A program made the position numbers and the translations under genes. The notes under the pieces were generated by a model. That model did no database searches and had not been told where the DNA came from. It saw only the letters and a program-made list of their open reading frames with translations. 42,042 nucleotides of DNA from Escherichia phage Skarpretter, in sequence record NC_048112.1; one strand, given 5' to 3'. Shown here piece after piece: positions 3,938 to 39,848 of the stretch. Positions within the stretch are counted from its first letter, which is position 1. The number at the start of each line of letters is the position of its first letter.

Positions 3938-3982
3938 ACTATACACTTAAACGTGAATATCTGTTTTAGCAATTTGTGCTAT
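3938..3982 (-). promoter_or_regulatory. conserved promoter element driving SPFH gene
   Basis: Minus strand reads ATAGCACaaatTGCTAAA, 23 nt, TATAGT, tcaACTCAC, ~50 nt before ATG at 3893. Confidence 0.6.
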
Positions 3983-4035: not shown

Positions 4036-4066
4036 GCCGCCCCGTTTTGGACGCGGCTTTTTTTTA
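4036..4066 (+). terminator. possible rho-independent terminator (plus orientation)
   Basis: GCCGC-12 nt loop-GCGGC followed by T8; long loop, overlaps 3' end of the minus-strand primase gene. Confidence 0.35.
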
Positions 4067-4894: not shown

Positions 4895-4916
4895 AATCAA
4901 CAAAGCCCGTTACTAT
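4888..4916 (+). promoter_or_regulatory. putative sigma70-type promoter for helicase operon
   Basis: TTGCCA-17 nt-TACTAT followed by a CTCAAAC element, ~40 nt upstream of helicase ATG. Confidence 0.35.
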
Positions 4917-4957
4917 TCACTCAAACGTGATTATGAATAAGCAGGAGACAAAACGCA

Positions 4958-6958
4958 ATGGTAATAACCCCCGTCAAGGAAACAAACTTTGCCTGGCAAC
5001 TCATGGAAACGATCGAGGAGCGCATAGCCCGCACGCCGATCGCGGAGTTAATGGCGAAATTTGGCCCAATGCCGCTTGATCCTTACCCGTACCAGTGGGC
5101 CGCTTATGAGGCGGTAGCGGAATGCCTGCGCAAGTACCCCGGCCCGATCATTGTCGAGGCCGCTGTAAGTGCTGGTAAAACGATCATGATCTCCATGCTG
5201 GCGCGGCGCATTGTCGAAATGAAACAACGGGCGCTGGTGATAAGCCGCCAGGCGGAGATCGTGGATCAGGACGCCACGGAGTTATGGAATTTTGACGTTA
5301 AAAACTCCGTGTTTTGCGCCGGGCTGAATAAGAAAAGCACGCATTACCCGGTGGTCTGCGGCTCGGAGAAAACCGTAGCCAACGCGATCGAGGGGAAGTT
5401 AAAAGACTTTGCCCCGCTCTTTCTGGTGATCGATGAATGCCACCAGGTAAACATTGACGATCTGATAGCCTCCGAAACTGCGGAGATCCTGGAGGTGATC
5501 GAGGAAAACGGCGAGCCTTACGAGCGCGTGCGCGTCGGGGAAACGCTGGAGGAAATGATCGCCAATAAGCGCAACTCCTACACGATAATCATTCGTGAAT
5601 TGCAAAGACGTTGCCAGGAGGTACACGGCACCCGCTTACGCGTGATCGGCTACACTGGCACGCCGTACCGGGGCACCGATTCGATCGTAAATGAGGACTA
5701 CGAAACGCCGGGTTTTTGGCGTAAGACGGTGATCCGCATTACAACGCCTTACCTGGTTAAAGTCGGCTCCGTTGTGCCAACGTTCTTTGGCTCCTCCGCG
5801 CTGGGTTACGATCTCTCTGAGTTTGACCAATTCAAGGAGGAGGGCTTAACGGACTTTAGCGACGAGCAATTAAAGGCCATGCAACGCAAGATAGCGCGTG
5901 AGAAGGATTTAACGCACGCAATCATGGCTGAGGTGTACGAGCTAACAAAACGCCGTAACGGCGTTCTGGTGACGTGCTCCGGCGTCGATCACTGCCACGA
6001 GGCCGCAAGCGCGTTACCGGAGGGCGTGACCTATGCGATCATCACGGAGAAAACCACAACCCGCGATCGAATGGACATTATCGCCGGGGCGAAATCCGGC
6101 GCGATAAAGTTTGTCTTTCAGGTCATGGCGCTTACAACTGGCGTTAACGTGCCACCCTGGGACACGTCCGTAATTCTGCGCCGTATCGGCTCGCTAACGC
6201 TGCTCGTGCAACTGCTGGGGCGCGGTATGCGCATTCTGAAAAAAGAGCATATAGCGGCGGGCATGGTGAAAAAAGATCACCTCGTTTTGGACTACTCCGG
6301 CACTATGGCGGCTATGGGTTCCCTGTTTGAAGATCCGATCCTGGAGGATTACACATACCAATCTGAGCAAGTGGGCGAGAAAACCAAAGAGTGCCCGGAC
6401 TGCTTAACGATGAATACAGAAAAGGCCCGCCGTTGCTCCGGGATCGTGAACGGTGAAAGGTGCTGGCATTTCTTCCAATCAAAGACCTGTGACGACGATG
6501 TAGACGGATCGACGGGTCGCATTCTCCGCCCAGGATGCGGGGCCGAAAATGACATAGTAGCCAAAAATTGCCGTTGCTGCGGTAAGCGGCTGATCGACTT
6601 TAACAAAAACCTGTCAGGCCAACATTACACGGAGGGGGATTATTGCAACGTGGTAGATTGGGAGCCGCAAGTAGGCCGGGGCGGCTCGTTTGCGATCCAG
6701 TACACGTTGGAGAAAGACGGGATCACGTTTAAGGCGTGGGAAATCCACTGGTTAACGTCCAACAATCCGGGCGCGTATCAGGTCTGGAAAACGTTTGTTA
6801 ATACCCACGTTTTCGACGAAACCGGACGTAAGACGCTGCGCAACTGCCGCACCCCGGAGGCGGTGTTAAAGAACGTGCATTACCTCATGAAGCCAAAGCG
6901 CGTTACGCACCGTAAGACGGGCGGCGGCAAAGATACCATTAACAAAAAGGTGTTTTGA
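4958..6958 (+). CDS. superfamily 2 DNA helicase (DEAH-type) with C-terminal Cys-rich zinc-binding region
   Basis: 666 aa; Walker A AVSAGKT, Walker B VIDECHQ, motif VI-like LLGRGMR; C-terminal CPDC...CRCCGK cluster. Confidence 0.8.
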   Translation: MVITPVKETNFAWQLMETIEERIARTPIAELMAKFGPMPLDPYPYQWAAYEAVAECLRKYPGPIIVEAAVSAGKTIMISMLARRIVEMKQRALVISRQAEIVDQDATELWNFDVKNSVFCAGLNKKSTHYPVVCGSEKTVANAIEGKLKDFAPLFLVIDECHQVNIDDLIASETAEILEVIEENGEPYERVRVGETLEEMIANKRNSYTIIIRELQRRCQEVHGTRLRVIGYTGTPYRGTDSIVNEDYETPGFWRKTVIRITTPYLVKVGSVVPTFFGSSALGYDLSEFDQFKEEGLTDFSDEQLKAMQRKIAREKDLTHAIMAEVYELTKRRNGVLVTCSGVDHCHEAASALPEGVTYAIITEKTTTRDRMDIIAGAKSGAIKFVFQVMALTTGVNVPPWDTSVILRRIGSLTLLVQLLGRGMRILKKEHIAAGMVKKDHLVLDYSGTMAAMGSLFEDPILEDYTYQSEQVGEKTKECPDCLTMNTEKARRCSGIVNGERCWHFFQSKTCDDDVDGSTGRILRPGCGAENDIVAKNCRCCGKRLIDFNKNLSGQHYTEGDYCNVVDWEPQVGRGGSFAIQYTLEKDGITFKAWEIHWLTSNNPGAYQVWKTFVNTHVFDETGRKTLRNCRTPEAVLKNVHYLMKPKRVTHRKTGGGKDTINKKVF

Positions 6959-7377
6959 TGAAAGTCACGGATAAGGGTTTATATCTGGAGTGGTACGCCG
7001 GGCCAACTGGCAAAAAGTCGCCGGAGGAAAAGGCGGATCAGAAAAGCACGGCGGGCTGGCTCCGCAAGTGGCACCCTGAAAAGCTCTTTTTTCATCCGGT
7101 CAATGAGTCGGGGAGCGGCGGGAGTAAACAGCGCGGCGCGGAGTTAAACGAAATGGGGCGCTTAACCGGGATCAGCGATTGGGTGATCCTGGAATCGTTC
7201 GGCGGGCACCCTTACGCGCTGATCGAGTTGAAGCGGGAGAACAAGGCGGACGCCTCGCCAGTGAGCGCGGAGCAAAAGGCCGTGTTTGAGAAAGCGCGGG
7301 CGCGTGGTGCATTTTGTGCGGTTTGCTACGGGCGGGAGGCTTTCAAGGCTTGCGCGTCGTATTACTTCACGTTATAG
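6958..7377 (+). CDS. VRR-NUC domain nuclease
   Basis: ~139 aa; PD-(D/E)xK-like GISDWVILE...ALIELKRE pattern typical of VRR-NUC; start overlaps helicase stop (TGATG). Confidence 0.6.
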   Translation: MKVTDKGLYLEWYAGPTGKKSPEEKADQKSTAGWLRKWHPEKLFFHPVNESGSGGSKQRGAELNEMGRLTGISDWVILESFGGHPYALIELKRENKADASPVSAEQKAVFEKARARGAFCAVCYGREAFKACASYYFTL

Positions 7378-7378
7378 T
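7350..7378 (+). promoter_or_regulatory. putative promoter for exonuclease-erf-ssb operon
   Basis: TTGCGC-17 nt-TATAGT-gaa-CATCAC, resembling the core of the conserved element. Confidence 0.3.
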
Positions 7379-7409
7379 GAACATCACGCAACAATGAGGA
7401 GTAAACGCA

Positions 7410-8414
7410 ATGAGTGATATTTACTGCCAGGTGTACCAGGCGGACGAGTTAACAAACGACGCCTATCACGAGGAAACGGATCACGTTTCCGGCTCCAGCC
7501 TGCATATGATGTTAAAAAACAGCATGGCGGGCTGGCGCTTCCAGAAGAAAAAAGACGAGGCCGAAAAAGCCAAAGAGAAGGAAAGCAACGGCGCGGCACA
7601 AAAGCCGCTGGCGTTCGGCACCACGGGCCATACGTGTATGCTTGAGCCGTCACGCTTTGAGGCTGAATTTTACCGGATGCCTGATCCTGCCGATTATCCA
7701 AAGGCTTTAACGTCCGTTGCTGCGGTCTGCTCATGGCTGAAAGAGAAAGGCGTAGGCGGTTACTCCGGTAAGAAAATGCCCGATCTTTATCCGCTCGTGG
7801 ATATGACCGGGGAAGATGTGATTATCTGGCAACGCCTTTGGGAGCAACACCAAAAGCTGGCGGGTGATCGTGAGCAAGTGCCAGCCAAAGACTACGATCG
7901 CGTCCTCATGATGCGTGAGGTGCTTTTAAACAACCACGATTACAGCCAGATCATTTATGACGGCGTGCCGGAGTTATCGATCTTCACTGAGATCGACGGC
8001 GTAAAAATCAAAGTGCGACTCGATCGCGTGACCAAAGACGCGGCATTAGTGGACTACAAAACCACGCAAAGCGCGGAGCCGGAGAAGTTCGGGCGGCTGG
8101 CGTTTGACAACGGCTACTGGTTAAAAATGGCGTTGCAACATGACGCTTTCGAAATCGCATACGGTCAAAAACCATCTTCCACCAACTTACTTGCCCAGGA
8201 AAAGGAGGAGCCTTATTTAGCGATGATGTACGCGCTAACCCCTGAGCAATTAATGGTGGGCCGGATGCAATATAAAACGGCGCTGCAAATGTATAAAGCG
8301 TGTCGTGATCTGGACGTTTGGCCCGGCTATGCTGGCGGCGTGGCGTCAATGAGTTTACCAACGCCCGGTTATATTCAGGCGCGTTACAAAGAATATTTTA
8401 AAGTTGAGGTTTGA
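7410..8414 (+). CDS. PD-(D/E)xK (RecB/YqaJ-like) recombination exonuclease
   Basis: 334 aa; LDRVTKD...VDYKTT nuclease motif; immediately upstream of erf and ssb. Confidence 0.65.
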   Translation: MSDIYCQVYQADELTNDAYHEETDHVSGSSLHMMLKNSMAGWRFQKKKDEAEKAKEKESNGAAQKPLAFGTTGHTCMLEPSRFEAEFYRMPDPADYPKALTSVAAVCSWLKEKGVGGYSGKKMPDLYPLVDMTGEDVIIWQRLWEQHQKLAGDREQVPAKDYDRVLMMREVLLNNHDYSQIIYDGVPELSIFTEIDGVKIKVRLDRVTKDAALVDYKTTQSAEPEKFGRLAFDNGYWLKMALQHDAFEIAYGQKPSSTNLLAQEKEEPYLAMMYALTPEQLMVGRMQYKTALQMYKACRDLDVWPGYAGGVASMSLPTPGYIQARYKEYFKVEV

Positions 8415-8416
8415 TC

Positions 8417-9097
8417 ATGGAAAACATTATTCATTTTTCGGAAACACGCGGCGCGTTTATGGCTGCATTCTTTGAAGCAAAAAAGAATATCGGCGTCATT
8501 GCAAAAAAGCGTGAAAATAAACACCTGAGTAGCAAATATGCAAACCTTACGGACTACCTGGACGCGATCGACTCCGCGATCGAGGATGCCGGGTTAATGG
8601 TTATCCAATCGCCGGGGAAATTCACGGCGGCGGGTGATCTGCCGATGGAAACGCGGATCGAGCATGTGGCAAGCGGTGAATTTATGGTTGCCCAAATGGA
8701 GATCCACGTAGACCGCAAAAACGCCCAGGGCGACGGCTCCGCGATCTCCTACGCTCGCCGCTACCATATCGGCGCATTGTTCGGCCTGTCTGCTGAGGAC
8801 GACGACGGCAACGGGGCCAAACGCAAGGCCAAAGACTACATGAAAGAGTTTGATCTGATCACCGATATCAAAGAGTTGAAAGACGAGGCACGCCGCGCCT
8901 TTATGGCTCTGCGGGGTAACGAGACGGAGCAAAACCTGATCCACACCTACGTGTCAAAACGTGAAGCTGATTTGACAATGAAGGGCGCAACCGGGTTTAA
9001 TCCGGCTCAACCGCGCAACGCTCGCCAGGCCCAAAAAGCGGAGCCAGCGCCAGCGCCAGCGGCGGAAGATAAACCAACACCCCCGGAGAAATTTTAA
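8417..9097 (+). CDS. erf: Erf-family single-strand annealing protein
   Basis: ISYARRY signature of the ERF family; likely ATG at 8417 with GAGGT SD; synteny exo-erf-ssb. Confidence 0.75.
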   Translation: MENIIHFSETRGAFMAAFFEAKKNIGVIAKKRENKHLSSKYANLTDYLDAIDSAIEDAGLMVIQSPGKFTAAGDLPMETRIEHVASGEFMVAQMEIHVDRKNAQGDGSAISYARRYHIGALFGLSAEDDDGNGAKRKAKDYMKEFDLITDIKELKDEARRAFMALRGNETEQNLIHTYVSKREADLTMKGATGFNPAQPRNARQAQKAEPAPAPAAEDKPTPPEKF

Positions 9098-9100
9098 TAT

Positions 9101-9637
9101 ATGGCTACTCGCGGAGTTAACAAAGTGATCCTCGTCGGTAACGTAGGGCAAGATCCAGAAATGCGTTACATGCCCAGCGGCGGGGCTGTCTGCAACCTTA
9201 CGATCGCCACCTCGGAAAGCTGGAACGATAAGCAAACCGGGGAGAAGAAAGAGCAAACCGAATGGCACCGGGTGGTGCTGTTTGGGAAAGTGGCGGAGGT
9301 TGCCGGGGAGTACGTCAAGAAAGGCACCCAGCTTTACATTGAGGGCCAATTACGCACGCGTAAGTGGACGGATCAAAGCGGCGTGGATCGTTACAGCACT
9401 GAGGTTGTTGTAAACGTTGGCGGCACAATGCAAATGCTCGGCGGCAATAAGCAAAGCGCGGCGGGTACTTCCTGGGGGGAGCCTCAACAACCTAGCGGCC
9501 CGGCTCAAAGTGGCGGTAATCGTCAGCGTGCGCCCCGTGGCGGCTCTAACGGCGGTCAGGGCGGTAATCGTCCATCTAATCAGGCTCAAGGCAATAACGA
9601 GCCTCCTATGGACTTTGACGATGACATCCCGTTTTAA
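9101..9637 (+). CDS. ssb: single-stranded DNA-binding protein
   Basis: 178 aa; OB-fold region, Gly/Gln-rich linker, canonical C-terminal tip MDFDDDIPF. Confidence 0.95.
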
Positions 9638-9692
9638 CTTTTAACCAGGTGCGGCCCTTCGGGGCCAATCCTCCCAGCCACGAGGCTTGCTA

Positions 9693-10079
9693 ATGAAAAC
9701 GTGCAAAAAATGTGGGGAATCAAAGCCGCTCGATCAATTCCATAACGACAAATCAAAGAAAGACGGCAAGCGGGCGAATTGTAAAGCCTGCCAGAATAAG
9801 CAAACGAAAGAGTATCAACACGGGGCGGGTAAGGATGTTGCCAACGCTTGCAAGGCGCGATACATGAAGAAACACGCCAAAAAGCGCCGGGCGCACATCA
9901 TGGTGAATAATGCGATCCGTGACGGCAAATTACAGCGCGGCCCCTGCGAGGTCTGCGGGGAGATCAAGGCGGTTGCCCATCACGACGATTACGATCACCC
10001 GCTGGTGATCCGCTGGCTCTGTGAGCCACATCATAAAGAATGGCATTGCGCCAACGGTGAAGCCCTCAACCCTGATTGA
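9693..10079 (+). CDS. HNH endonuclease-like protein
   Basis: CKKCG...CKAC and CEVCGE...HHDDY...WLCEPHHKEWH consistent with an HNH zinc-binding nuclease. Confidence 0.55.
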   Translation: MKTCKKCGESKPLDQFHNDKSKKDGKRANCKACQNKQTKEYQHGAGKDVANACKARYMKKHAKKRRAHIMVNNAIRDGKLQRGPCEVCGEIKAVAHHDDYDHPLVIRWLCEPHHKEWHCANGEALNPD

Positions 10080-10342: not shown

Positions 10343-10346
10343 ATAA

Positions 10347-10372
10347 GGGGCCATAGCGGCCCCTTTTTTTTT
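10347..10372 (+). terminator. rho-independent terminator, likely bidirectional
   Basis: GGGGCC-atagc-GGCCCC followed by T9; lies between convergent HTH gene and tailspike gene. Confidence 0.8.
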
Positions 10373-12678: not shown

Positions 12679-12699
12679 TAAAAAAGGGGCCGTAGCCCC
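12679..12699 (-). terminator. rho-independent terminator after ejection-protein gene
   Basis: Minus strand GGGGC-tacg-GCCCC followed by TTTTTT. Confidence 0.7.
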
Positions 12700-12704
12700 T
12701 TCGT

Positions 12705-20718: not shown

Positions 20719-20741
20719 TAAAAAAAGGGGCCGTAGCCCCT
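20719..20741 (-). terminator. rho-independent terminator after coat gene
   Basis: Minus strand GGGGC-tacg-GCCCC followed by T7. Confidence 0.75.
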
Positions 20742-20776
20742 TTATACACGAAACAATCAGGTTAATCACCTATGCC

Positions 20777-22051
20777 TTACGGCGTCGGCGCAACCTGGTT
20801 TGCGATCTCGATGCCTACATATTCCGGCACCAGGACGGACACGCCATACAGTGTAGTAAAGCGGGCCGTGGTTTTCCCGGTGATGTGGTTGAACGCGTAG
20901 GACATGATCAGGGTTGCGCCCTGCTTAGTCGTCGCGGTCATAACCTGCGGGCCTTGTCCGGTTGGGAATGCGAGTTTCCCGTACATCACCTCTACGGAGC
21001 CGTCAGCCCACAAAATGTTGGTGTTAGCTGCCACGGTGTTGATAACGGTCAGCGCTGCGCCGGAGGCCGGGTTAGCGGTTACGTTAGCATACGGGCGGCT
21101 CGGCTCGTCGGCGTTGTCCAGCGGGAGGATCTTCGGCGCAATGGTAATGGTGTTGCCACTAACTGCCAGCACGCGGAAAACCTGCTCTTTGTCGGTCGTC
21201 GCTTTGCCGATCAGGTGTACCATATCCACACCCTCGATCGTGAATGCGTCGCCCTGCTGCAAGCCGTGGGAGGCGGAAACCGTGATCGTGCCGTAGCGGT
21301 TATCTACTGGCATGTTGCTTACCGCGTCCATTGCTTCGACTTTGTGAGCCGGAGCCGCCGCCAGGGTGATCGCCGCTGCGGAGCCAGTAGGCACGCGCCC
21401 GGTTTGATCCACTTTGTAGGAGTCGAACGACGCCACGTTAGGGATCTGCGCACGTTCCCACGCGGCCTGGTTGATGCCGGAGGAGTAAGAGCGGCCCGCC
21501 AGTTCACCCGCCAGATCTTTATAATCGTAGGCGTTGAAGAAAGCGCGTTTAGTGATGCCCATCGGCACGCCGATCATGGTGAAATCGGCGTCAAGCTCTG
21601 CCGCACCATCCCAAAGATCTTTGCCTTTGGTGCCAGTGGAGTTATCGCCAACGGCTTTAACGTTGGTTGCCCAGCGGGAAGCCTCTACAACGGTGTCATA
21701 GTCGATCTTCGCTGCGAGGCGCTGGCCTGCTGCGCGGCCTGCGTCGGTTTTGTGCTCCGGGTCGCGCATTTCGCGGGCGTCCAGGGTGTACAGGATGTTT
21801 TGCGGCTCTTTAAAAGTCGCTGGCACCTGGCGCTGGACAAGCTCGGTTTGCGCTGCGGAGGTCAGATCCAGACCTTCCACAATATCCATGTGGTAGTGCT
21901 GCGGACGCCATACGGTATCGCCTGCACGCTGCATGGCGGTGTCGTCAGGTCGGAATTTCTTTGCCTGGCGTGATACTACGCAAGCGGCCTCAAAGCCTTC
22001 TACGTAGTTCTCGAACATAATTTCGAGGTCTTTCGTTAACTGGTTAGCCAT
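20777..22051 (-). CDS. major capsid (coat) protein, P22 gp5-like
   Basis: 424 aa; ITVSASHGLQQGDAFTIEGV (P22 [20 protein letters not shown]), PYANV, NILWADGSVEVM (P22 NVFWADDAIRIV). Confidence 0.85.
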   Translation of the reverse strand: MANQLTKDLEIMFENYVEGFEAACVVSRQAKKFRPDDTAMQRAGDTVWRPQHYHMDIVEGLDLTSAAQTELVQRQVPATFKEPQNILYTLDAREMRDPEHKTDAGRAAGQRLAAKIDYDTVVEASRWATNVKAVGDNSTGTKGKDLWDGAAELDADFTMIGVPMGITKRAFFNAYDYKDLAGELAGRSYSSGINQAAWERAQIPNVASFDSYKVDQTGRVPTGSAAAITLAAAPAHKVEAMDAVSNMPVDNRYGTITVSASHGLQQGDAFTIEGVDMVHLIGKATTDKEQVFRVLAVSGNTITIAPKILPLDNADEPSRPYANVTANPASGAALTVINTVAANTNILWADGSVEVMYGKLAFPTGQGPQVMTATTKQGATLIMSYAFNHITGKTTARFTTLYGVSVLVPEYVGIEIANQVAPTP

Positions 22052-22092: not shown

Positions 22093-23046
22093 TTACCCGG
22101 CTTTCTTCGCCGCTTTCAACTTTTCTTTAAGTTGCATAACGGTTGTATAGTCGCCGGATTCGCGGGCTTTCTCTAATGCCGCCTCTAAACCGTGGATCGT
22201 GGTCTGCGTCGCGCCTGTTTTAACAGCCGGGGCACCCTTCGCCGTCGATTTAGCTTGCGGCCTAAAGCCTGCGCCTTTGTCAATTTCCGCTAACAGATAG
22301 CCCAGGGCTACCGGATCGCCGGAAACGTCTTGCAGTTGTTTACGCAAAGCGGCATTGCGGCCCAGGGCCAACACTGCACCAGCCGGGTTTTTGCTGTTCA
22401 TCAGCAAAGTAAGCTGGAGGTTTTGCGGGATCTCGGCGGCTACTACCTGCTCCGCACGTTCAAAGCCCGGCACCTTTAACACTTTGGCGCGTTCAGCGTT
22501 GTAATTCTGCGTGCGCTCGTTTAGCTTCGCCTGGAGTTTCTCGGCCTGCTGTGCTTTCGAGTGGTTGCGCTCCGTGATCGCGTCACGGGTCTTTAACCAT
22601 TCGGCGTGGGCGGCGTCGTACTTCTCTTGATCCCAATCGATCCCGGCGTCGCTCATTTTCGGAGCGGGTGGGATTTCTTCGGGCAAGTTCTGCGGCGCGG
22701 CCTGCTGCTGCTGGGCGGATTTTTCCTTAAACGCTGCTCGTTGCTCACGCAATTTACTACGCAAGTGTTTTACCAGGTCGGTGTCACCTTCCTGATCTTC
22801 GTCGTCGGCGGCTTGCGAGGCCAAAACTTCACCGTTAAAAGTAAACTCTAACGCTTCGTCGTCCGCTTCGGCGTTCTGCTGTCCGGGATCATCTTCCCCG
22901 TTGTCGTCGTCACCGTCGCCGCCGTCCTGGCCGTCGTCGTTGTCGTCGCGCTGGGTTTCCTGCTCCTGGTTCTGCATCTGCTCGTAAGCGCTCGCGCCTG
23001 CGTCGTCGTTTAAATCGGTGTTGTTCTCTGCATCATTTCCGAACAT
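22093..23046 (-). CDS. scaffolding protein
   Basis: 317 aa, very acidic Asp/Glu-rich N-terminus, coiled-coil, basic C-terminal helix KLKAAKKAG; immediately upstream of coat. Confidence 0.75.
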   Translation of the reverse strand: MFGNDAENNTDLNDDAGASAYEQMQNQEQETQRDDNDDGQDGGDGDDDNGEDDPGQQNAEADDEALEFTFNGEVLASQAADDEDQEGDTDLVKHLRSKLREQRAAFKEKSAQQQQAAPQNLPEEIPPAPKMSDAGIDWDQEKYDAAHAEWLKTRDAITERNHSKAQQAEKLQAKLNERTQNYNAERAKVLKVPGFERAEQVVAAEIPQNLQLTLLMNSKNPAGAVLALGRNAALRKQLQDVSGDPVALGYLLAEIDKGAGFRPQAKSTAKGAPAVKTGATQTTIHGLEAALEKARESGDYTTVMQLKEKLKAAKKAG

Positions 23047-23144
23047 GTTTTACTCTCCGTACAATACGCGATGTTTAGCCCCATCGGTGGGAACAAAACG
23101 GAGTGTAAAGCAAAGTTTGCGACATTGGCAAGGGGTGAATACAC

Positions 23145-23175
23145 GAAAAAATCCCCCCAGCACGGAGCCAGGGGG
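23145..23175 (-). terminator. rho-independent terminator ending the two-gene unit inserted between portal and scaffold
   Basis: Minus strand CCCCC-13 nt loop-GGGGG followed by ATTTTTTCG. Confidence 0.55.
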
Positions 23176-23188
23176 CAAGGGAGGTGGT

Positions 23189-23635
23189 TTATCTGTGGAA
23201 TATCCCAACGAATTTACCCAGGCGGACGATCTCCGGGGTTATCATTCCGGCGTTGGTTACAGCATCATGCGCGGCGTTGTTCATGCGGGTAAAGTAGCGG
23301 ATCATTTCGCGGGCTACTCTCTCCGGGTCGGTGCCCCAATCCTCCGGCACGCACGTTTTAACCTCGATCAAGCTGTCGGGATCATTCACGTCGCCCGGCC
23401 CCTCGATCACGTCCACGATCAGCGCCGTGTAAACGGTATCGGCTGGAGGGGTTGGCGCGTGCGCTGGTGATGCCCAGCCGCCCGTGCTGCTGGCGTCGTA
23501 TTTCCGGCGTGCTTCCATCCACTCGCTTACGGCTTTGTCGCTCGGCGGTAAACGAAACTCTTTTCCCATATCGCGGGGTAGTTGGTAGGTGCGCCCGTTA
23601 AGAGCGCCCCCGATCATTACGTAACGATATAACAT
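23189..23635 (-). CDS. hypothetical protein
   Basis: 148 aa, ATG at 23635 with GAGGA SD; second gene of promoter/terminator-bounded unit. Confidence 0.55.
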   Translation of the reverse strand: MLYRYVMIGGALNGRTYQLPRDMGKEFRLPPSDKAVSEWMEARRKYDASSTGGWASPAHAPTPPADTVYTALIVDVIEGPGDVNDPDSLIEVKTCVPEDWGTDPERVAREMIRYFTRMNNAAHDAVTNAGMITPEIVRLGKFVGIFHR

Positions 23636-23644
23636 GGCGTTTCC

Positions 23645-24100
23645 TCAAAATGGAATATCAAGATCAGGATCTTTCTTTGGTGCTGGCTCCACGATCTCCG
23701 CGTCCTCGGCGTCGATCTCCTGCTGTGGCTTGTCGTCTGCCGGGATGATCTCACTCTCAACCGGGCCTTTGTAGGCGATAGCCTTAAACCGGGCGATCTT
23801 GCCCTGCAACTGCGTTTCTGTCCGGTACGCGGCGGCACGGTGGCGGCTTAACTCGGTTTCGTACTTCTCGATCATATCCTTCGCTACGCTGTCGATCGGC
23901 GCTGGCTCGTATTCGATCTCAACGTCTTTAACGGCGAGTAGTGCCCAGGTGCCAAACATGCGGAGGCTGTCGGCGTTGCCGTTTGGGCCGTAGCTCTCGT
24001 GCTGCGGGTTGGTGAAAACTTCTACTTTGCCCTCGGTGCCCTGGTAGGTTCCGGCGTCAACGCACTGGCAAATGTAAAGGCGGGTCGTGATAGTCTGCAT
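23645..24100 (-). CDS. hypothetical protein with SSB-like C-terminal tip (..KKDPDLDIPF)
   Basis: ~151 aa from ATG at 24100 (GAGGAG SD); acidic disordered C-terminus ending DLDIPF, as in SSB. Confidence 0.6.
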   Translation of the reverse strand: MQTITTRLYICQCVDAGTYQGTEGKVEVFTNPQHESYGPNGNADSLRMFGTWALLAVKDVEIEYEPAPIDSVAKDMIEKYETELSRHRAAAYRTETQLQGKIARFKAIAYKGPVESEIIPADDKPQQEIDAEDAEIVEPAPKKDPDLDIPF

Positions 24101-24146
24101 GTTCTGATCTCCTCGGTTGGGTTCACGTTGTCGTGAATGTGAGGAG

Positions 24147-24191
24147 ACTATAGCCCCATCCGTGGGGCTTGTCTTTAGCAAAAAGTGCTAT
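24147..24191 (-). promoter_or_regulatory. conserved promoter element driving the 24100 unit
   Basis: Minus strand ATAGCACttttTGCTAAA, 23 nt, TATAGT, ctcCTCACAttcac. Confidence 0.6.
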
Positions 24192-26428
24192 TCCTGGTTT
24201 GCGCTCTGCGCCGCTGCATTCAGGAGGCGATCCGCGTTGCGCTCGTCGGCCTGCTGCTGGTCGCGGGTAAACTGCTGCATAAGCTGGATCACTTCCACCA
24301 GCTGATCGTGCTTAATGCCTGCGGTTTTGGCGATGGTTTCCAGCGTCTGCGCGTCGGTCAAGCGTCCATCTTTCGCGGCTTTCTCTGCGGTCACTTGCAG
24401 GTTAAGCGCTTTGATGTTCAGATCCTTATCTTTCAACGCCAGATCGGTTTGCTTGTTCTGCGCGTTCATCAGATCAGCCGTGGCTTTCTTGTCCTCTGCC
24501 ATTGCTGCAACCATCATTGGATCAGGCTGGTTCTGTTTCGCTTCCTGCGCCTGCTGCAACATCGCTTTTTCTTCGTCCGTTTCCGGCTGAATAATGCCGT
24601 TCATAATCATCTGATTACGGCTATATTCGCGGAAGTCCTGCAACCCTTCGCCGTCCATGTTCATCAGGATCAGGCTCATGACGATCGCCGCGTTAGGATC
24701 TTGCGGGTTCATGGATTGTAACAGGTTGGTGAGGTTGCGCACCGTCGCCTGGCGGCGGGTTTGGCTGCTCTCGCCTACGCTGCTCTCAACTTCGTATTTG
24801 CCTTTGGTCAGGTCGTTTAGCGCGATCTGCTGTTTGGTCTTACGGTCGATTACTGCGCCCTGTAACAACACCATATCGTCGCTGCCGTCCTCATTCACGA
24901 CGCGGACATAATCGACGGAGCCGTAAACCTCGCGGGCCATTTCGAGCCATACTTTGCCAGCGTGGCGCAAGGATTTTGCGAGGTTGTCCATATACAGCGC
25001 CCCTTGTCCGTCCATGCGGGCAAAGATTGCCTCCACGGTTTCGGTTGCAAGGTTCGACGGCATAGATTCAACCTGGCTTGCGCCTACGATCTGTTGAATG
25101 GTTCCGCCCGTGTACTGGAGGATCGCGGCAAGGTTCGCGTTTAGCGGCGCTGAGGGGGTATAACCCAGCACGCCACCCGGCGCAATGATATTGCCTTGAT
25201 CGTCGCGCAAGCTCTCAACCGGAAGGTAAGCCGGGCGCTCCTTGTTACGGTTGCCCCACGCGTTAGCCAGCGGGCCGGGCACCATGTTTACATCAAGGAT
25301 CGGGATATTGTCGCCGCCTGCCTGGGTGGCGTTGTCCGCCAGCATGGAAACGATCAGGTTTTCCAGGCGCTGCGCGTCGGTTGCCAGCGTGGCGTGCCCT
25401 GCGATCCTTTCCTGGTTGTCAACGAATGAGCGGCGAGCGTATACCGGGATCAGCGGAATGTAACACCCTGGGATGCGCTCCATTGGCTCCAGCCATTCGC
25501 CACCACTGAGGACGCCGCAATAGATACGAGGTTTTTTTACTTTGCGCTCTTTGCCCTTTTTAAACCCGGCGTCGCGTAACTCGTCCTCGATCTTGGCGAT
25601 CTGATCTTCCTCATAAACCGCCGTTTCTTGCGTCATGGGGTTTTGATAGCTGATCACGGTGACTTCCTCGATCCGCTTCTCATAGTAGCGGGCAAGGTAT
25701 ACCGCGTCCGGCGTACACCAATCAAATTGCTTGCCAGTGTCCAGCATTTCGAGGCTTTCCGGGGCCATAGCCGTTGGGTATTGCTCCTCGTATGCGTCCG
25801 GGTCAATGCTGAAAAGCTCCGTTGCCCACATAGCATCGCTGCGATCGTACTGCTTTGAGTTCTGATCAAAGAATACGCACGACGCCGGATCGTATACCGG
25901 GTGGAAAGTAATATGCCGCGCTTCGCTGTCCGGGTTGTACTCGTCCTCTAAACAGGTGTCCATGCGGAAGCAACCAAACCCGCCCGTTACCGCGTCGTCA
26001 AAGGCGTTATCGATCGCCTCGCACCCGCTGGACTCGTTGAAGTCGGCGCGAAATTTGCCGTTCAGCTTGTCGGCTAACTCCTCGGACGCTTCGCCGTCTT
26101 TCGGGCGATAGGTGACGTTTACGCGGTTTAGGCGGTAATCGGTGATAATGCGATCGACTTCACGCGCCAGCTTGTTAAGCTCAAAGCGCGGGTATTTTTT
26201 AAACCGATCGTCGTCCATGTTCCAGCCGGAGTTGGTCGATCCTTCCCATTGTGCGCCGGGCACGCGGACGAATCGCAACACCTCGATCATTTTCTTACGG
26301 CTGGTTTCCTCGTTCGCAAACTGCGTTGAGATACGTTTACGGGCGCGGGCGTGTTCCTTGTCCTCGCTCTTGCTCATTTTACGCGGGGTTTTCCCCTCGT
26401 TGGTTTCCAGGTCGTTACGGTCTGCCAT
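24188..26428 (-). CDS. portal protein (P22 gp1-like)
   Basis: ~746 aa; YRPKDGEASEELADKLNGKFRAD (P22 [22 protein letters not shown]), FFDQNSKQYDRSDAMW (P22 IWDSNSKLMDKSDARH); likely ATG at 26428 with AGGGGAG SD. Confidence 0.85.
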   Translation of the reverse strand: MADRNDLETNEGKTPRKMSKSEDKEHARARKRISTQFANEETSRKKMIEVLRFVRVPGAQWEGSTNSGWNMDDDRFKKYPRFELNKLAREVDRIITDYRLNRVNVTYRPKDGEASEELADKLNGKFRADFNESSGCEAIDNAFDDAVTGGFGCFRMDTCLEDEYNPDSEARHITFHPVYDPASCVFFDQNSKQYDRSDAMWATELFSIDPDAYEEQYPTAMAPESLEMLDTGKQFDWCTPDAVYLARYYEKRIEEVTVISYQNPMTQETAVYEEDQIAKIEDELRDAGFKKGKERKVKKPRIYCGVLSGGEWLEPMERIPGCYIPLIPVYARRSFVDNQERIAGHATLATDAQRLENLIVSMLADNATQAGGDNIPILDVNMVPGPLANAWGNRNKERPAYLPVESLRDDQGNIIAPGGVLGYTPSAPLNANLAAILQYTGGTIQQIVGASQVESMPSNLATETVEAIFARMDGQGALYMDNLAKSLRHAGKVWLEMAREVYGSVDYVRVVNEDGSDDMVLLQGAVIDRKTKQQIALNDLTKGKYEVESSVGESSQTRRQATVRNLTNLLQSMNPQDPNAAIVMSLILMNMDGEGLQDFREYSRNQMIMNGIIQPETDEEKAMLQQAQEAKQNQPDPMMVAAMAEDKKATADLMNAQNKQTDLALKDKDLNIKALNLQVTAEKAAKDGRLTDAQTLETIAKTAGIKHDQLVEVIQLMQQFTRDQQQADERNADRLLNAAAQSANQE

Positions 26429-26478
26429 TCTCGGCGCTCCCCTTGTTGATTCTGGCAAAGTCTAACATGATGCGAAAA

Positions 26479-26522
26479 ATAGCACGAATTGCTAAAGCAT
26501 TTCACGTTAAAGTGATTATAGT
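26479..26522 (+). promoter_or_regulatory. conserved promoter element driving the 3-gene cassette
   Basis: ATAGCACgaatTGCTAAA, 22 nt, TATAGT, aatCTCACAttcac, ~35 nt before ATG at 26557. Confidence 0.6.
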
Positions 26523-26556
26523 AATCTCACATTCACGAACAAATGAGGGCTTTAAA

Positions 26557-26763
26557 ATGTTAACTTTCGTAATCGTTGTTGCGGCGCTGTCCTGGATCGT
26601 CTGCTCATGGCTCGTTGGCGCGGCTGCTGGGCGGTACTTCGCCAGCCCGGTTTGCGCGTGGGTCTACCTGGGCGTTTCGCTGGTGCTGTCGCCGCTGGTG
26701 GGCCTGCTGGTGCTGTTTGGCTCTCACCTGCTGGACTACATCGAATCGCGGGGCCGCGCATGA
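26557..26763 (+). CDS. small membrane protein (two predicted TM helices)
   Basis: 68 aa, two hydrophobic helices; GAGGG SD; ATGA overlap with next ORF. Confidence 0.55.
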   Translation: MLTFVIVVAALSWIVCSWLVGAAAGRYFASPVCAWVYLGVSLVLSPLVGLLVLFGSHLLDYIESRGRA

Positions 26764-26933
26764 AACGTAAAGAGCGGTTAAGCCTGCTGGCAGTGCGCAA
26801 CCTCGCGGCGGGCTGTCCGCCGTCAAAGATCCCCGGCCCTGCGTCGCGCATGGACTGCGAGGAAATTATAACGGAGTTGGCCCAGCGTTACGTGCGGCTC
26901 CTGGATAAAGTCAACGCTATGAAATACAGGTGA
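26760..26933 (+). CDS. small hypothetical protein
   Basis: 57 aa, translationally coupled (ATGA); shares ELAQR motif with following ORF. Confidence 0.45.
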   Translation: MKRKERLSLLAVRNLAAGCPPSKIPGPASRMDCEEIITELAQRYVRLLDKVNAMKYR

Positions 26934-26937
26934 TAAG

Positions 26938-27123
26938 ATGGACGAAATAACGATAAGCATTATCGATCAGCTTGCGGACGGCGTGCCGTTTTACGATCTC
27001 CTCTCCGGGTACGATAGCGAATCGCTGATCCAGGAGTTGGCCCAACGCTTACGCGATGCCAACGACGAGATCGAAAGCCTGGGTTATGAGGTGATGGAAT
27101 TACAAGATCCGGGGAGTTCATGA
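26938..27123 (+). CDS. small acidic hypothetical protein
   Basis: 61 aa, AGGTGATAAG SD, followed by terminator. Confidence 0.5.
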   Translation: MDEITISIIDQLADGVPFYDLLSGYDSESLIQELAQRLRDANDEIESLGYEVMELQDPGSS

Positions 27124-27124
27124 A

Positions 27125-27152
27125 AACAGGGGCCATTGCGGCCCCTTTTGCG
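27125..27152 (+). terminator. rho-independent terminator (bidirectional position)
   Basis: GGGGCC-attgc-GGCCCC followed by TTTTG; between convergent cassette and terL 3' end. Confidence 0.7.
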
Positions 27153-28793
27153 TTAGTAGTTGCTCGGTACGTTGTACCCGGAGTAATCCGGCTTGATCAC
27201 CTTCTGCGGCGGCTGCATCGTCATGATCAGGCTATCCGCCATGCCCGGCGATTTGATTTTCAGCTTTGTACGCATCTGAGGCTTAGGCATGCGGGAAAAC
27301 TTGCCGTTTGCGTTGTAGATCCTCGGAATGCGGCAAAGCTCCGCACGTAGCTTGCTCATGTACTCCCCGATCCCGTCGCTGTCCAGGCTGATCAACTCGT
27401 CCGGGTTGATGTAAAGCGTTTCGCCTTTGTCCAGTGCTGCTATCACCTGGGCGGTTTTCTCAAAGCGTCGGCGTAACAGGTAAATATCTTGCGATCCACG
27501 GTTGGCGAATACGTCGCTATTGCTGCTCGCGTTCTTCCCTTCGGTTGGGTTGTTCAGCCACTTATCAAGCTCTACGGGGGCGTCCGGGAATTTCACGCCG
27601 TCGCCTGCGTTGTAGCCCTCAACCATTACCGGAGTGTTGGCGTAAGCGTCAGTAAGCTGGCGGCGCAAGCCTGCGCCCAAACCTGCCCTATCCCACATCA
27701 GCGCGTCAACGTGCGCGGCTTTGGACTCTGCGATCGCCACGTCTGCGGCGTCGTTCGCGTCACCCTCCAGCCAGGACAAACCACGAGTAACCACGGAGCC
27801 GTGCCGGACGATAAACGCTTTGTTATCCTCGCCAACGTCTGCCGGGTCGAGTGCGCCAATCTTCATGCCGGACGGCTTAAACCCGATCCGCTTGTGGGCG
27901 TCGATCGCTGCATCAAACCATTCAGCCGGGATAATCGCATCCGGCACGGAGTCATTGAAAGCGCCTTTCCAGATATGATCGAACAACGCACGGGAAAGCG
28001 TTTTAAAGTCGTATTCCATTTCAGCCCGGAGCGACGCCGGAAACCACGGGTTTTTGTCGTAGTTCACTTTGATCACGAGGTGTAGATCGTCCTCGTAGAT
28101 CCCGTCTTTGTCCAGGGCGTCCGTAAACGGCACGATGAAACGTTTACTAAATGGATCTTCACTGCTGCCGGGGTTGGCGGTGAAGATCATATAGCCCCCT
28201 TCCTCACGCATGGTTGGGGTCAGCTTGCGTAATGACTCCTCGGAAAAGGTCTGCGCCTCCTCACCCCAAAAGCGTTTAAACCCATAGGACGATTTCACGC
28301 CGTCCGGGTCGCGGGCCATACCTTTAAAGACGTGCAAGCCGCCGTTGACGTGGCGGATCTCGTCTTTCATCACTTCGAAACCGTCATACCCGGCACGCTC
28401 GATCATCTGCGAAAGTAGCGGGTGTACGGAGTATTTAATAGCGGTCTGAAACTCGCGGAGGTTCATCACCTTTACGGCGTCGTCGTTCACGTCACCGTTA
28501 AGGATCATCCCGGTTGAGTCGGATTTACCGGAGCCACGGCCCCCGATCACGATGTTAAAGCGTTTGGGGCGCGTTAAGAGCGGCTCCAGCACTTCGGGGA
28601 TCGTGACGTGGTGAGGCTTATCGGTTTCCACCCAGCGGTGGCCCTTTTTGGTGATGTTCTTTACGTGTTCCGGCAAGCCGTTTGCGCCGGGTCGGTAAAT
28701 GCCATAAACCGTGCGGGTGTAGGTGCTAATGTGTCGCGCTTTGGCCTCTGCTGTCGCCATGCGCTGCATGATCTGCTTTAGGTTACGCCCCAT
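27153..28793 (-). CDS. terL: terminase large subunit
   Basis: 546 aa; Walker A IVIGGRGSGKSDS, acidic nuclease-domain residues; directly upstream of portal. Confidence 0.85.
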   Translation of the reverse strand: MGRNLKQIMQRMATAEAKARHISTYTRTVYGIYRPGANGLPEHVKNITKKGHRWVETDKPHHVTIPEVLEPLLTRPKRFNIVIGGRGSGKSDSTGMILNGDVNDDAVKVMNLREFQTAIKYSVHPLLSQMIERAGYDGFEVMKDEIRHVNGGLHVFKGMARDPDGVKSSYGFKRFWGEEAQTFSEESLRKLTPTMREEGGYMIFTANPGSSEDPFSKRFIVPFTDALDKDGIYEDDLHLVIKVNYDKNPWFPASLRAEMEYDFKTLSRALFDHIWKGAFNDSVPDAIIPAEWFDAAIDAHKRIGFKPSGMKIGALDPADVGEDNKAFIVRHGSVVTRGLSWLEGDANDAADVAIAESKAAHVDALMWDRAGLGAGLRRQLTDAYANTPVMVEGYNAGDGVKFPDAPVELDKWLNNPTEGKNASSNSDVFANRGSQDIYLLRRRFEKTAQVIAALDKGETLYINPDELISLDSDGIGEYMSKLRAELCRIPRIYNANGKFSRMPKPQMRTKLKIKSPGMADSLIMTMQPPQKVIKPDYSGYNVPSNY

Positions 28794-35074: not shown

Positions 35075-35118
35075 ATAGCACGAATTGCTAAAACAGCTTT
35101 ATGAATACTATGTATAGT
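35075..35118 (+). promoter_or_regulatory. conserved promoter element driving plus-strand island
   Basis: ATAGCACgaatTGCTAAA, 22 nt, TATAGT, tatCTCACAccaac, 32 nt before ATG at 35151. Confidence 0.6.
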
Positions 35119-35150: not shown

Positions 35151-35696
35151 ATGACTACAGCAATCACAATGAAAGTAACCCTCGGCGCACTGGCTGGCCT
35201 GATCTCCTACTGCGAAAACAAAAAAATGAAAATGGCAAAGATTCAGGCGCACGTTTCTAACATCGCCTTTATCGAACTGAATCACCCGGCCTTTGCTTAC
35301 GCTAAAGACCTGCTCAACGAGGCCGCTGATAAGCGCCGCACCTTCTCCGGCGTTGCTAACTGCATCCAGGCGGCGATTACTGAGATCAACCGCGTGATCG
35401 ACGCTGCGCACGCTGAGGCCCTGGAAATGGACGCGGTAGTAAATGATTGCGTAACCCGTTTCAAATACTGCATCGATCACTATCAGGCTGAATGCAACGT
35501 TAAAAACGAGATCCACGGCCTCGTGATTGCGAAAGGCTACGCGCTCGGCTGGACGGCTCGCATGATGGTTAAAATGGTGGCTAACGTGTGGCGTTTGGGT
35601 GAGGCGGCGGCAAAGGCACACCGCGCACATACTGCGGCAATGCTGGCGGCGGCTCCGGCTAATGGCTCAATCCCTGATTATGATCTCCCGTTTTAA
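35151..35696 (+). CDS. hypothetical protein with SSB-like C-terminal tip (..SIPDYDLPF)
   Basis: ~181 aa from ATG at 35151 (GAGG SD); C-terminus IPDYDLPF. Confidence 0.6.
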   Translation: MTTAITMKVTLGALAGLISYCENKKMKMAKIQAHVSNIAFIELNHPAFAYAKDLLNEAADKRRTFSGVANCIQAAITEINRVIDAAHAEALEMDAVVNDCVTRFKYCIDHYQAECNVKNEIHGLVIAKGYALGWTARMMVKMVANVWRLGEAAAKAHRAHTAAMLAAAPANGSIPDYDLPF

Positions 35697-35710: not shown

Positions 35711-35754
35711 ATAGCACGAATTGCTAAACGCCGCGTCTAAATACTATGTATAGT
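35711..35754 (+). promoter_or_regulatory. conserved promoter element
   Basis: ATAGCACgaatTGCTAAA, 22 nt, TATAGT, tatCTCACAccaac, before ATG 35788. Confidence 0.6.
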
Positions 35755-36431: not shown

Positions 36432-36887
36432 ATGAAACCACAAGAGATCAAAAAGGCGGGCATCTTCTCAAAGGATGATATTCACTGCTTCACTGACTGC
36501 GGCTACAACTGCAAGGCAAAGGTAAGGGCTGATCTTGAGGCGCATTACGCGCCAATCGCTGCGGCGCTGGGTAACGGCTGGCGCGTTAACATCTGGCACA
36601 ACGGCGGCTGGCACGCTAACCTGGCGCATGATGAATCACAATTTTACCTGAGCGATCGAGCGGTGCGCGGCGGTATCAGTGCAATGAAGGTGGACGCCGA
36701 TCGGTTTGAGGACAACGTAAACCGCTTTGAGGTGTTCAATTACGAATACCCGGAGGGCACCAGCCAGGTTTGGGTGTACGGTAACGATCCGAAAGACGCG
36801 ATCCGCAACGCCTTTAACGCCGTGTCGGAGCGGGTAGTAGCCTACATGGTGCAACAACAAAAGATCCTGGACGCTTTCCCCGGATAG
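36432..36887 (+). CDS. hypothetical protein
   Basis: 151 aa, Trp/Asn/Gly-rich; stop codon lies inside next promoter palindrome. Confidence 0.55.
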   Translation: MKPQEIKKAGIFSKDDIHCFTDCGYNCKAKVRADLEAHYAPIAAALGNGWRVNIWHNGGWHANLAHDESQFYLSDRAVRGGISAMKVDADRFEDNVNRFEVFNYEYPEGTSQVWVYGNDPKDAIRNAFNAVSERVVAYMVQQQKILDAFPG

Positions 36888-36927
36888 CACTTTTTGCTAA
36901 ACGCTCCTCGTAAATACTTGGTATAGT
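36884..36927 (+). promoter_or_regulatory. conserved promoter element
   Basis: ATAGCACttttTGCTAAA, 22 nt, TATAGT, tctTTCACAccaac, before ATG 36959. Confidence 0.6.
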
Positions 36928-39282: not shown

Positions 39283-39833
39283 TGTGGGGCGCGATCCTGG
39301 CCCTCCTGCGCCGATACTGGAAGCCGATCGCCGTAATCCTCCTCGTGCTGCTGGCGCTGGGGGGATCTTACCTTAAAGGCTCGGCTGATAAGGATCAGGA
39401 ATGGCAAGCGCGATGGACACAACGCGATCTGGACGATTCCACCCAGAAAGGGATCGATAATGTAGCCGCCCGGATAATTGAACAAGGCCGGGCCATTGAA
39501 CGCCAGGAGGCGATCGAGGATGCACAAAAACGGGAAGCCGCCGCGCTGGCTGCTGCTGATCGGTTGCGTGGTACTGTTGACGGCCTGCAACAACTCGCCA
39601 ACAAATACGCGGCCCAACTGGACGCCCAGCGGGCAACCACTGATCTTGCCGCTGCCGTCGCAAGCAAAACAAAAGCCCAGGGGGCCGGAGTGCTCGCCGT
39701 CATGCTCGGAAGCGTTGCAAAGGAAGCTGAATATTATGCTAAACGATCTGACGAAAGCTACGACGCCGGGCTAACCTGCGAGCGGCTTTACGAGTCGGTG
39801 AGGGTGACGCAAGAAAAAGTCAAGGGGCCATAA
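39282..39833 (+). CDS. Rz: i-spanin (Rz-like)
   Basis: 183 aa; N-terminal TM helix, periplasmic coiled-coil; TAATG coupling with R. Confidence 0.7.
   Translation: MWGAILALLRRYWKPIAVILLVLLALGGSYLKGSADKDQEWQARWTQRDLDDSTQKGIDNVAARIIEQGRAIERQEAIEDAQKREAAALAAADRLRGTVDGLQQLANKYAAQLDAQRATTDLAAAVASKTKAQGAGVLAVMLGSVAKEAEYYAKRSDESYDAGLTCERLYESVRVTQEKVKGP
39520..39774 (+). CDS. Rz1: o-spanin (Rz1-like) lipoprotein embedded in +1 frame of Rz
   Basis: ~84 aa from internal ATG; signal peptide with lipobox (LIGC / LTAC), Pro-rich mature region. Confidence 0.55.
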   Translation: MHKNGKPPRWLLLIGCVVLLTACNNSPTNTRPNWTPSGQPLILPLPSQAKQKPRGPECSPSCSEALQRKLNIMLNDLTKATTPG

Positions 39834-39848
39834 CGGCCCCTTTTTTTA
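39822..39848 (+). terminator. rho-independent terminator (bidirectional position)
   Basis: GGGGCC-ataac-GGCCCC followed by T7; between Rz and convergent Ig-like gene. Confidence 0.8.

Follow-up and report, generated by a model that had tools for sequence, protein, structure and literature searches.

The sequence analysed here (the window) comprises all 42,042 bp of the Escherichia phage Skarpretter genome (NC_048112.1). This lytic podovirus is the sole species in Skarprettervirus (PMC7552041). We examined the interval between its portal and scaffold genes, in which two small genes, here called A and B, lie between a putative promoter and an intrinsic terminator, and the product of A ends in a peptide like the C-terminal tip of SSB, the bacterial protein that binds single-stranded DNA. 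All of the morphogenesis genes are on the minus strand, and their order and orientation are those of the P22 head genes, namely terminase, portal (gp1), scaffold (gp8) and coat (gp5). However, in P22 the portal gene ends at 3879 and the scaffold gene starts at 3893, i.e. 13 nucleotides (nt) separate them, whereas the Skarpretter gap is 1,141 nt and holds the cassette and three regulatory elements. An annotation made earlier from the sequence alone (the first-pass annotation) had placed two genes here, and both are confirmed at those positions (Table 1). The ATG of A is found 7 nt past GAGGAG. Relative to their counterparts in related phages, A and B have ratios of non-synonymous to synonymous substitution rates (dN/dS) of 0.25-0.47, and thus both open reading frames evolve as coding sequence.

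Table 1. Features of the portal-scaffold interval, the surrounding head genes and a second tip-bearing protein of Skarpretter (positions in the window; aa, amino acids)
Feature	Position	Strand	Remarks
Large terminase	27153-28793	-	genome annotation by family searches
Portal	24188-26458	-	PF16510, E = 1e-159
Upstream promoter element ATAGCACTTTTTGCTAAA	24174-24191	-	one of six exact copies of the pattern
GC-rich hairpin AGCCCCA-CGGA-TGGGGCT	24152-24169	-	inside the promoter spacer
-10 hexamer TATAGT	24147-24152	-	23 nt past ATAGCACTTTTTGCTAAA; invariant in six copies
Leader region of gene A	24107-24148	-	folding of read-through and promoter-initiated RNA compared
Gene A	23645-24100	-	151 aa; 100% identical to HOU67_gp28 (Skarpretter gp28)
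Tip codons DPDLDIPF	23648-23671	-	like the SSB C-terminal peptide; A ends KKDPDLDIPF
Gene B	23189-23635	-	148 aa; start 9 nt past gene A
Intrinsic terminator CCCCCUGG-CUCCG-UGCUGGGGGG, then AUUUUUU	23143-23175	-	hairpin search and folding
Sigma70-like scaffold/coat promoter TTGCCA-N18-TACACT	23102-23131	-	downstream boundary of the cassette
Scaffold	22093-23046	-	phrog_648
Coat	20777-22051	-	PF11651
Orphan protein ending ...GSIPDYDLPF	35151-35696	+	181 aa; behind the 35075 copy of the ATAGCAC class

The element ahead of A overlaps the portal stop codon (TAG, 24188-24190) and is one of a class with the pattern ATAGCAC-N3-TTGCTAAA, 22-23 nt, TATAGT and CTCACA. Six exact copies of ATAGCAC-N3-TTGCTAAA were found in the window, at 3965-3982 and 24174-24191 on the minus strand and at 26479-26496, 35075-35092, 35711-35728 and 36884-36901 on the plus strand. 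With up to 3 mismatches allowed, the 18-mer pattern matches at 8 places (0.74 expected), a number reached by none of 100 shuffled sequences. When the six copies are aligned, all have TATAGT 22-23 nt after TTGCTA, followed by a CTCACA-like stretch (CTC-A-CA) and, 34-47 nt further downstream, by a ribosome-binding site and start codon in the same orientation. With the CTCACA-like stretch, transcription would begin at a purine 7 nt downstream of the -10; at this usual distance, the predicted transcription start of gene A is the A at ~24140. None of the copies is ahead of a canonical structural gene; the genes behind them encode membrane or lipoprotein-like proteins and small uncharacterised proteins, or belong to a block ending in lysis genes or to a dUTPase/methylase block. 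The class is also found at 6-7 places in C130_2 that are homologous to Skarpretter sites, and the element is directly 5' of A in Skarpretter, C130_2, STP9, IME_EC2, sortsyn and KMB41. The claim of the first-pass annotation that a promoter element borders the unit upstream (24147-24191) is supported, as regards a putative promoter of this class, by the six copies and by retention of the element in relatives.

A spacer of 22-23 nt means that TTGCTA cannot act as a -35. The element does contain a palindrome, TAGCA-N5-TGCTA, centred at about -42, and class II activators bind near -42. Given a poor -35 and a palindrome in this position, the class probably depends on, or is controlled by, a dimeric regulator. 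The ATAGCAC element resembles both the sigma54 -24/-12 element and the T4 MotA box, and is neither. A sigma54 promoter should have TGGCAC-N5-TTGC, in which GG and GC are invariant and 10 nt apart, and TAGCAC-N3-TTGC differs from it in having AG, not GG, and a spacer 2 nt shorter; the conserved sigma70-type -10 that comes after the motif also disfavours this assignment. A MotA-box promoter is disfavoured by the spacing of its consensus.

The GC-rich hairpin within the promoter spacer is likely to terminate transcription from portal weakly or to attenuate it. C130_2 and STP9 have GCCCGCTTCGGCGGGC at this position, followed by a T-richer tail, and the stem has thus been preserved despite changes on both sides. 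A 16-nt identity between this hairpin and the scaffold 5' untranslated region (CCCAC[CG]GATGGGGCTA) is insignificant alone, as 27 of 100 shuffles give at least 2 matches at up to 3 mismatches.

Between the promoter and A, the segment GUCUCCUC (24141-24148) lies 5' of the predicted start and can base-pair with the Shine-Dalgarno sequence GAGGAGAU (24107-24114), with a small hairpin, UUCACG-ACAA-CGUGAA, between the two. The leader of an RNA reading through from portal folds at -16.2 kcal/mol (z = -3.7; 0 of 200 shuffles equally stable). A leader that begins at the predicted +1 (~24140) lacks GUCUCCUC, leaving the Shine-Dalgarno sequence free, and folds at -6.5 kcal/mol. The C130_2 leader follows the same logic with other bases, pairing AUUCUUUGCCC with GGGUUAAGAAU (-11.2 vs -3.5 kcal/mol). 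We hypothesise, from the predicted start and these two sequence types, that an anti-Shine-Dalgarno segment may insulate A from portal read-through. A search of 22900-24400 against Rfam gave no matches.

Downstream of B, the terminator is a hairpin with a 5-nt loop and a 9-bp stem, 7 of its pairs being G-C, followed by ATTTTTT (-20 kcal/mol, z = -2.8). It is identical in the seven Skarpretter-like metagenomic contigs described below, and C130_2 has the variant CCCAGCCCCGTTGCTGGGTGG followed by ATTTTTT. The hairpin terminator that had been proposed to close the unit is therefore present directly downstream and conserved. The sigma70-like promoter for scaffold and coat that follows it is kept in five related lineages as TTTACA or TTGCAT, N18, and TACACT or TAAACT.

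The first-pass annotation had named homologues at this position in most P22-like phages, with late expression and virion incorporation, as the finding that would count against an insertion. Such a distribution was not seen: using tblastn, gene A was found in 11 of 50,697 phage records, and no P22-type Lederbergvirus was among them. The A-bearing records include C130_2 (Hungariovirus), STP9, sortkaff and IME279 (Sortsnevirus), IME_EC2, sortsyn and KMB41 (Murrayvirus) and Kc166B, and A is between portal and scaffold in each record, so that all four related genera and Kc166B are covered. An exhaustive hidden Markov model search of 1.84 billion representative proteins gave only 15 clusters for A. 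Gene B is clear in C130_2, STP9 and 21 metagenomic proteins, and the Kc166B copy has diverged. In the Murray- and Sortsneviruses, one to three extra small genes are found between portal and A, and an 88-aa gene comes after A. Using hhalign, homology of B (148 aa) to these 88-aa genes, or to the gene that follows the A-like gene of L016 (a distant contig, see below), was unsupported; N-terminal and 'V-I-P' motifs are common to all of them by eye. On these sequences, we do not claim a universal A-B pair.

As A occupies the same slot across the clade, the unit is ancestral to the clade and is not an insertion in the Skarpretter genome. The proposed insertion thus stands relative to P22, which lacks A, and fails as a genome-specific event. 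Recent foreign acquisition is ruled out by base composition, as the GC contents of A and B (56.8 and 57.9%) match those of their neighbours (56.0-58.4%) and GC at third codon positions is also equal. Between clade members, only the alleles and the extra genes of the slot vary.

The extent of this variation was assessed with seven Skarpretter-like metagenomic contigs, using Skarpretter as the reference. These contigs have nearly the same bases as Skarpretter throughout the promoter, the leader, the terminator and the promoter of scaffold. Identity to Skarpretter is 90-96% for portal, 84-96% for coat and 76-95% for scaffold, and falls to 57-84% for B and 26-51% for A. Several contigs have a C130_2- or Kc166B-type A allele within Skarpretter-type flanks. 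In the relative L014, A has a synonymous divergence (dS) of 1.44 and B one of 0.77, compared with 0.20-0.30 for portal, scaffold and coat. The history of the cassette therefore differs from that of its flanks, pointing to allele exchange, and the pattern as a whole indicates that alleles are exchanged within a conserved expression slot. Structural genes of one particle seldom vary in this way, and host-facing genes usually do.

Protein A consists of a beta-rich domain (residues 1-64), a helix (69-109) and a disordered acidic tail (114-151) for which the predicted local distance difference test score (pLDDT) is below 50. Family and structure searches found no OB fold and no SSB family match for A, and in Pfam, PHROGs, NCBIfam and PADLOC nothing but one weak PHROG match to A was found for either protein. 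Protein B is an alpha/beta protein (predicted model pLDDT 83.8), and sequence and structure searches matched it to no relatives of known kind.

The tail of A is the part that can be compared with a known system. The C-terminal peptide of SSB (SSB-Ct; MDFDDDIPF in Escherichia coli) is bound by at least 17 partner proteins; its terminal Pro-Phe enters the hydrophobic pocket of the partner and its Asp residues meet Arg residues (PMC7145534). Like SSB, A has a disordered acidic tail ending D-I-P-F-COOH, the last 20 residues have a net charge of -5, and conservation is limited to the last 3-5 residues. The ending [I/V/F]-P-F-COOH is found in 33 of the 42 members of the family, some of them distant homologues outside head modules, and these 33 have the SSB-Ct arrangement of a PF end, a hydrophobic residue at -3 and acidic residues at -4 to -8. 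In a right-aligned comparison, entropy is 0 at -1 and -2, 1.0 at -3 (I/V/F) and 1.3 at -4 (mostly D), rising to 1.9-3.0 upstream of -4, with D predominating at -4, -7 and -8. The tails are net acidic and the linker is freely variable. Endings in the A family include DLDIPF, DPDIPF, PLDIPF, DKDGIPF, FNVPF, DLDFPF and DFDDVPF, and those of the distant clusters DDFPF, LDVPF, HHIPF, NDIPF, DDIPF, LEIPF, NEVPF and KDSPF; the variants DFDDVPF and DFDPDIPF come near the SSB sequence itself. That the first gene carries a mimic of the SSB tip, as the first-pass annotation had it, is thus upheld at the level of the motif, and the pattern matches a C-terminal docking peptide that fits the SSB rule. There are also differences from SSB. 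In A, the tip is on a hypervariable beta-plus-helix protein without an OB fold, the linker is ~35 rather than 56 residues, and some A alleles have no tip.

Alleles of this last kind are seen in IME_EC2 (L005, 3983-4408) and sortsyn (L008, 3959-4429), in which A stops at ...DAEIV and the next gene overlaps its stop codon (ATGA). The sister phage KMB41 keeps ...DKPLDIPF, and the EC2-type alleles are natural tip-deletion variants.

Of the distant A homologues, P0050 (locus L017) is in the same portal-scaffold slot in another ~42-kb phage. Four other distant members are on ~50-kb viral contigs, among small genes ~3 kb upstream of the endolysin and spanin genes, and no portal or scaffold was present among the annotated neighbours within 5-6 kb. 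Directly 5' of the A-like gene in these contigs are a terminator and then the ATAGCAC-N3-TTGCTAAA element, whose -10 is spaced as in Skarpretter. In the ~50-kb lineage in IMG/VR (L016, L023-L026), there are 3-4 copies of the class per 11 kb, with the -10 variants TATTAT and TATAAT at unchanged spacing. The coupling of A to this promoter class is thus independent of the head module. Several distant members were not found in IMG/VR, and a search of representative bacterial genomes for prophages found no relative of the distant subgroup (alignment A7).

A PF end is rare among the reading frames of Skarpretter, occurring in 4 of 301 long reading frames in the window: SSB, A, one non-gene frame and the protein encoded by 35151-35696. 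The phage SSB (9101-9637, plus strand) is canonical, and its tip is identical to that of E. coli SSB. The 35151-35696 protein has no Pfam or PHROG family match; the body of its Kc166B homologue (QQV88648.1) is 76% identical and the tail is different, yet still ends ...KDSELPF. As this protein and A are unrelated, tip mimicry is found twice in Skarpretter. The replication genes (4064-10079) include those for a primase, a helicase, a RecE-like exonuclease, Erf and an HNH/EndoVII-like protein, and a DNA polymerase was not found in the genome. Having its own SSB, Erf and exonuclease and no polymerase that we could find, the phage relies on SSB-centred host machinery, which implies the use of host DNA polymerase III. 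Phage annealing proteins have been reported to contact SSB-Ct (PMC13490951). T7 gp2.5, T4 gp32 and the phage's own SSB likewise use an acidic C-terminal tail for protein contacts in DNA metabolism, but all three are OB-fold binders of single-stranded DNA encoded in replication modules, and A is neither.

We favour, with a little more confidence than doubt, the interpretation that A and B form a non-structural, separately transcribed accessory cassette, in which A docks on the pockets that bind the SSB tip, as a decoy or an adaptor. Transcription, and its timing, would be set by the dedicated ATAGCAC-N3-TTGCTAAA/TATAGT promoter, and would stop at the intrinsic terminator just ahead of the scaffold promoter. 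RNA reading through from portal would carry the anti-Shine-Dalgarno segment that masks the ribosome-binding site of A, and the cassette's own transcript would then be the main source of A. The product would be a small, probably oligomeric protein of beta domain and coiled helix that presents a flexible acidic D-[I/V]-P-F-COOH tail, the signature by which SSB docks into the pockets of partners such as chi, PriA, RecQ, RecO and ExoI. By filling these pockets, whether in host enzymes or in recombination proteins of the phage itself, A could be a competitive decoy, keeping enzymes of the host away from phage DNA intermediates, or an adaptor, in either case favouring phage DNA metabolism or blunting a host response. 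B would be its co-expressed partner.

Several observations weigh against this interpretation. The Sortsneviruses (sortkaff, IME279) and Kc166B do not have the element ahead of A. The independent transcription proposed in the first-pass annotation is supported in silico for Skarpretter, where bracketing elements and a separate scaffold promoter are found, and does not extend to these relatives. In Skarpretter itself, the -35 region is poor, making the element a putative promoter. Five members, all of the Murrayvirus EC2 type, are without the tip and have retained gene A, so the body of A also has a role that is independent of the tip. The structure of A comes from a monomer model, which is blind to oligomeric state and complexes. 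The location of A in the head module leaves room for a morphogenetic role, and the weak PHROG match of its helix is to phrog_2932, 'head scaffolding protein' (E = 6e-4). We found no literature on the expression, timing or binding of any member, and no functional data for this phage group.

The head-module location and the PHROG match lead to an alternative that we consider unlikely, namely that A and B are late head-assembly or virion proteins (a scaffold accessory, a decoration protein or a packaged internal protein) with a tip that is incidental or targets the capsid. This would account for the relatives in which A has no separate promoter, and for a portal-scaffold location that is the same in all of the Skarpretter-group phages we examined. 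However, portal, scaffold and coat of the same genomes have diverged far more slowly than A and B, the promoter class is otherwise common to non-structural genes only, and distant A homologues are found outside head modules. The PHROG match is confined to the coiled helix, and A is unlike the phage's own scaffold; a scaffold paralogue was excluded as the identity of A using BLASTP (E = 0.53). If A and B were structural, the finding would shrink to an ordinary clade-specific head-module gene pair.

A second alternative concerns the ATAGCAC...TATAGT element, which might be an operator, a terminator or a recombination joint rather than a promoter, with transcription of the cassette confined to that of the portal-to-coat late operon. 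A canonical -35 at 17 bp is lacking, the element contains a terminator-like hairpin, and its promoter role is predicted from sequence. Against this stand the six copies, all pointing to a gene that starts 34-47 nt past an invariant TATAGT, the copies at the divergent junctions (26479+, 35075+), where some promoter is required, and the retention of the pattern across genera and in the ~50-kb lineage at the same spacing. We regard this alternative as improbable, to about the same degree as a structural role.

It is slightly less probable still that A is a structurally atypical but true single-stranded DNA-binding protein, a second SSB that recruits partners to single-stranded DNA through its tip. 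The architecture, in which a disordered acidic linker joins a folded N-terminal part to a DIPF tip, is that of an SSB. However, beyond the missing OB fold and family match, the folded part is not basic (~13 K/R vs 15 D/E, counted from the sequence), A is hypervariable, unlike SSB cores, and the phage already encodes a canonical SSB. The end of A could also be read as another short linear motif, either a mimic of the FtsZ C-terminal peptide (DYLDIPAFLRKQ) aimed at ZipA, FtsA, MinC or SlmA or a protease/degradation tag, but this is very improbable, as the apparent likeness of PDLDIPF to E. coli FtsZ PDYLDIPAF is offset by a family invariant of P-F at the extreme carboxyl end after I/V/F and D, as in the SSB-Ct rule (PMC7145534), by the need of the FtsZ peptide for residues past Phe, and by variants (DFDDVPF, DDFPF) that are SSB-like and not FtsZ-like.

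For the accessory-cassette interpretation, the closest known parallel is the moron. Lambdoid morons, as defined in HK97 and lambda, are promoter-gene-terminator units between late genes. The Skarpretter unit is alike in being compact, in having its own factor-independent terminator and, upstream of A, a promoter-like element (a putative promoter of the six-copy motif with an invariant -10 and fixed spacing), and in lying between genes that are adjacent in P22; the content of the slot is also variable and swapped between relatives. There are, however, differences. Skarpretter is lytic, so there is no prophage expression, and two genes are carried. The slot is conserved in at least 5 lineages, and A is present in every clade phage examined, rather than being present in some and absent from others. 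The promoter is of a phage-wide regulated class and not a stray sigma70 promoter.

A broader proposal is considerably more speculative, and we put it forward tentatively. A and the DYDLPF protein may represent an undescribed protein class in which the SSB docking peptide is grafted onto scaffolds that do not bind DNA, and which hijacks or jams the host SSB interactome. The slot might then be a recombination-driven hotspot for host-interaction or counter-defence genes, placed on a phage-wide regulated promoter and insulated by the anti-Shine-Dalgarno segment from late read-through. In the literature, for which our coverage was limited, we did not find a described family of phage proteins, other than SSBs, with an SSB tip. 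The SSB tip is a hub for replication restart, recombination and repair in bacteria, and is pursued as an antibiotic target. If the proposal is correct, a tip-bearing phage family that is not SSB would provide this hub with an inhibitor or adaptor that is natural and can evolve, and phages would be exploiting the SSB tip as a portable docking peptide. The locus would also be a model for the embedding, in the late operon of a lytic phage, of a host-interaction module that is regulated separately and evolves fast, with a three-part design of promoter class, terminator and possible translational insulation.

A number of further features were noted around the cassette. Unlike in P22, a small block on the opposite strand (26479-27146) parts terminase from portal. 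It contains genes for small membrane proteins (~26560-27123, plus strand), has its own promoter of the ATAGCAC class and is closed by a bidirectional terminator (27128-27146). This opposite-strand arrangement is also found in C130_2. The longest open reading frame for portal begins with TTG at 26458, and the true start is likely to be the ATG at 26428 (MADRNDLE...), which has GGGGAG ahead of it. Between the portal start and the divergent promoter at 26479, no portal promoter was recognisable.

Between the scaffold promoter and the scaffold start, the 5' untranslated region includes an element at 23063-23091 (minus strand), CC(A/G)CCGATGGG(G/C)...ACATCGCGTAT, with a sequence that is conserved across Skarpretter-, Hungario-, Murray- and Sortsneviruses, and in which CGAUG can pair with CAUCG. 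Scaffold synthesis is autoregulated in P22, and this element is possibly a site for post-transcriptional control of scaffold synthesis. Elsewhere in the genome, near-identical terminator hairpins, AAGGGGCCATA(A/G)CGGCCCCTTTTTTT, are found at 10345-10370, 27127-27152 and 39822-39847, and a second hairpin, AAAAAAGGGGCCGTAGCCCCTT, is identical at 12680-12701 and 20721-20742.

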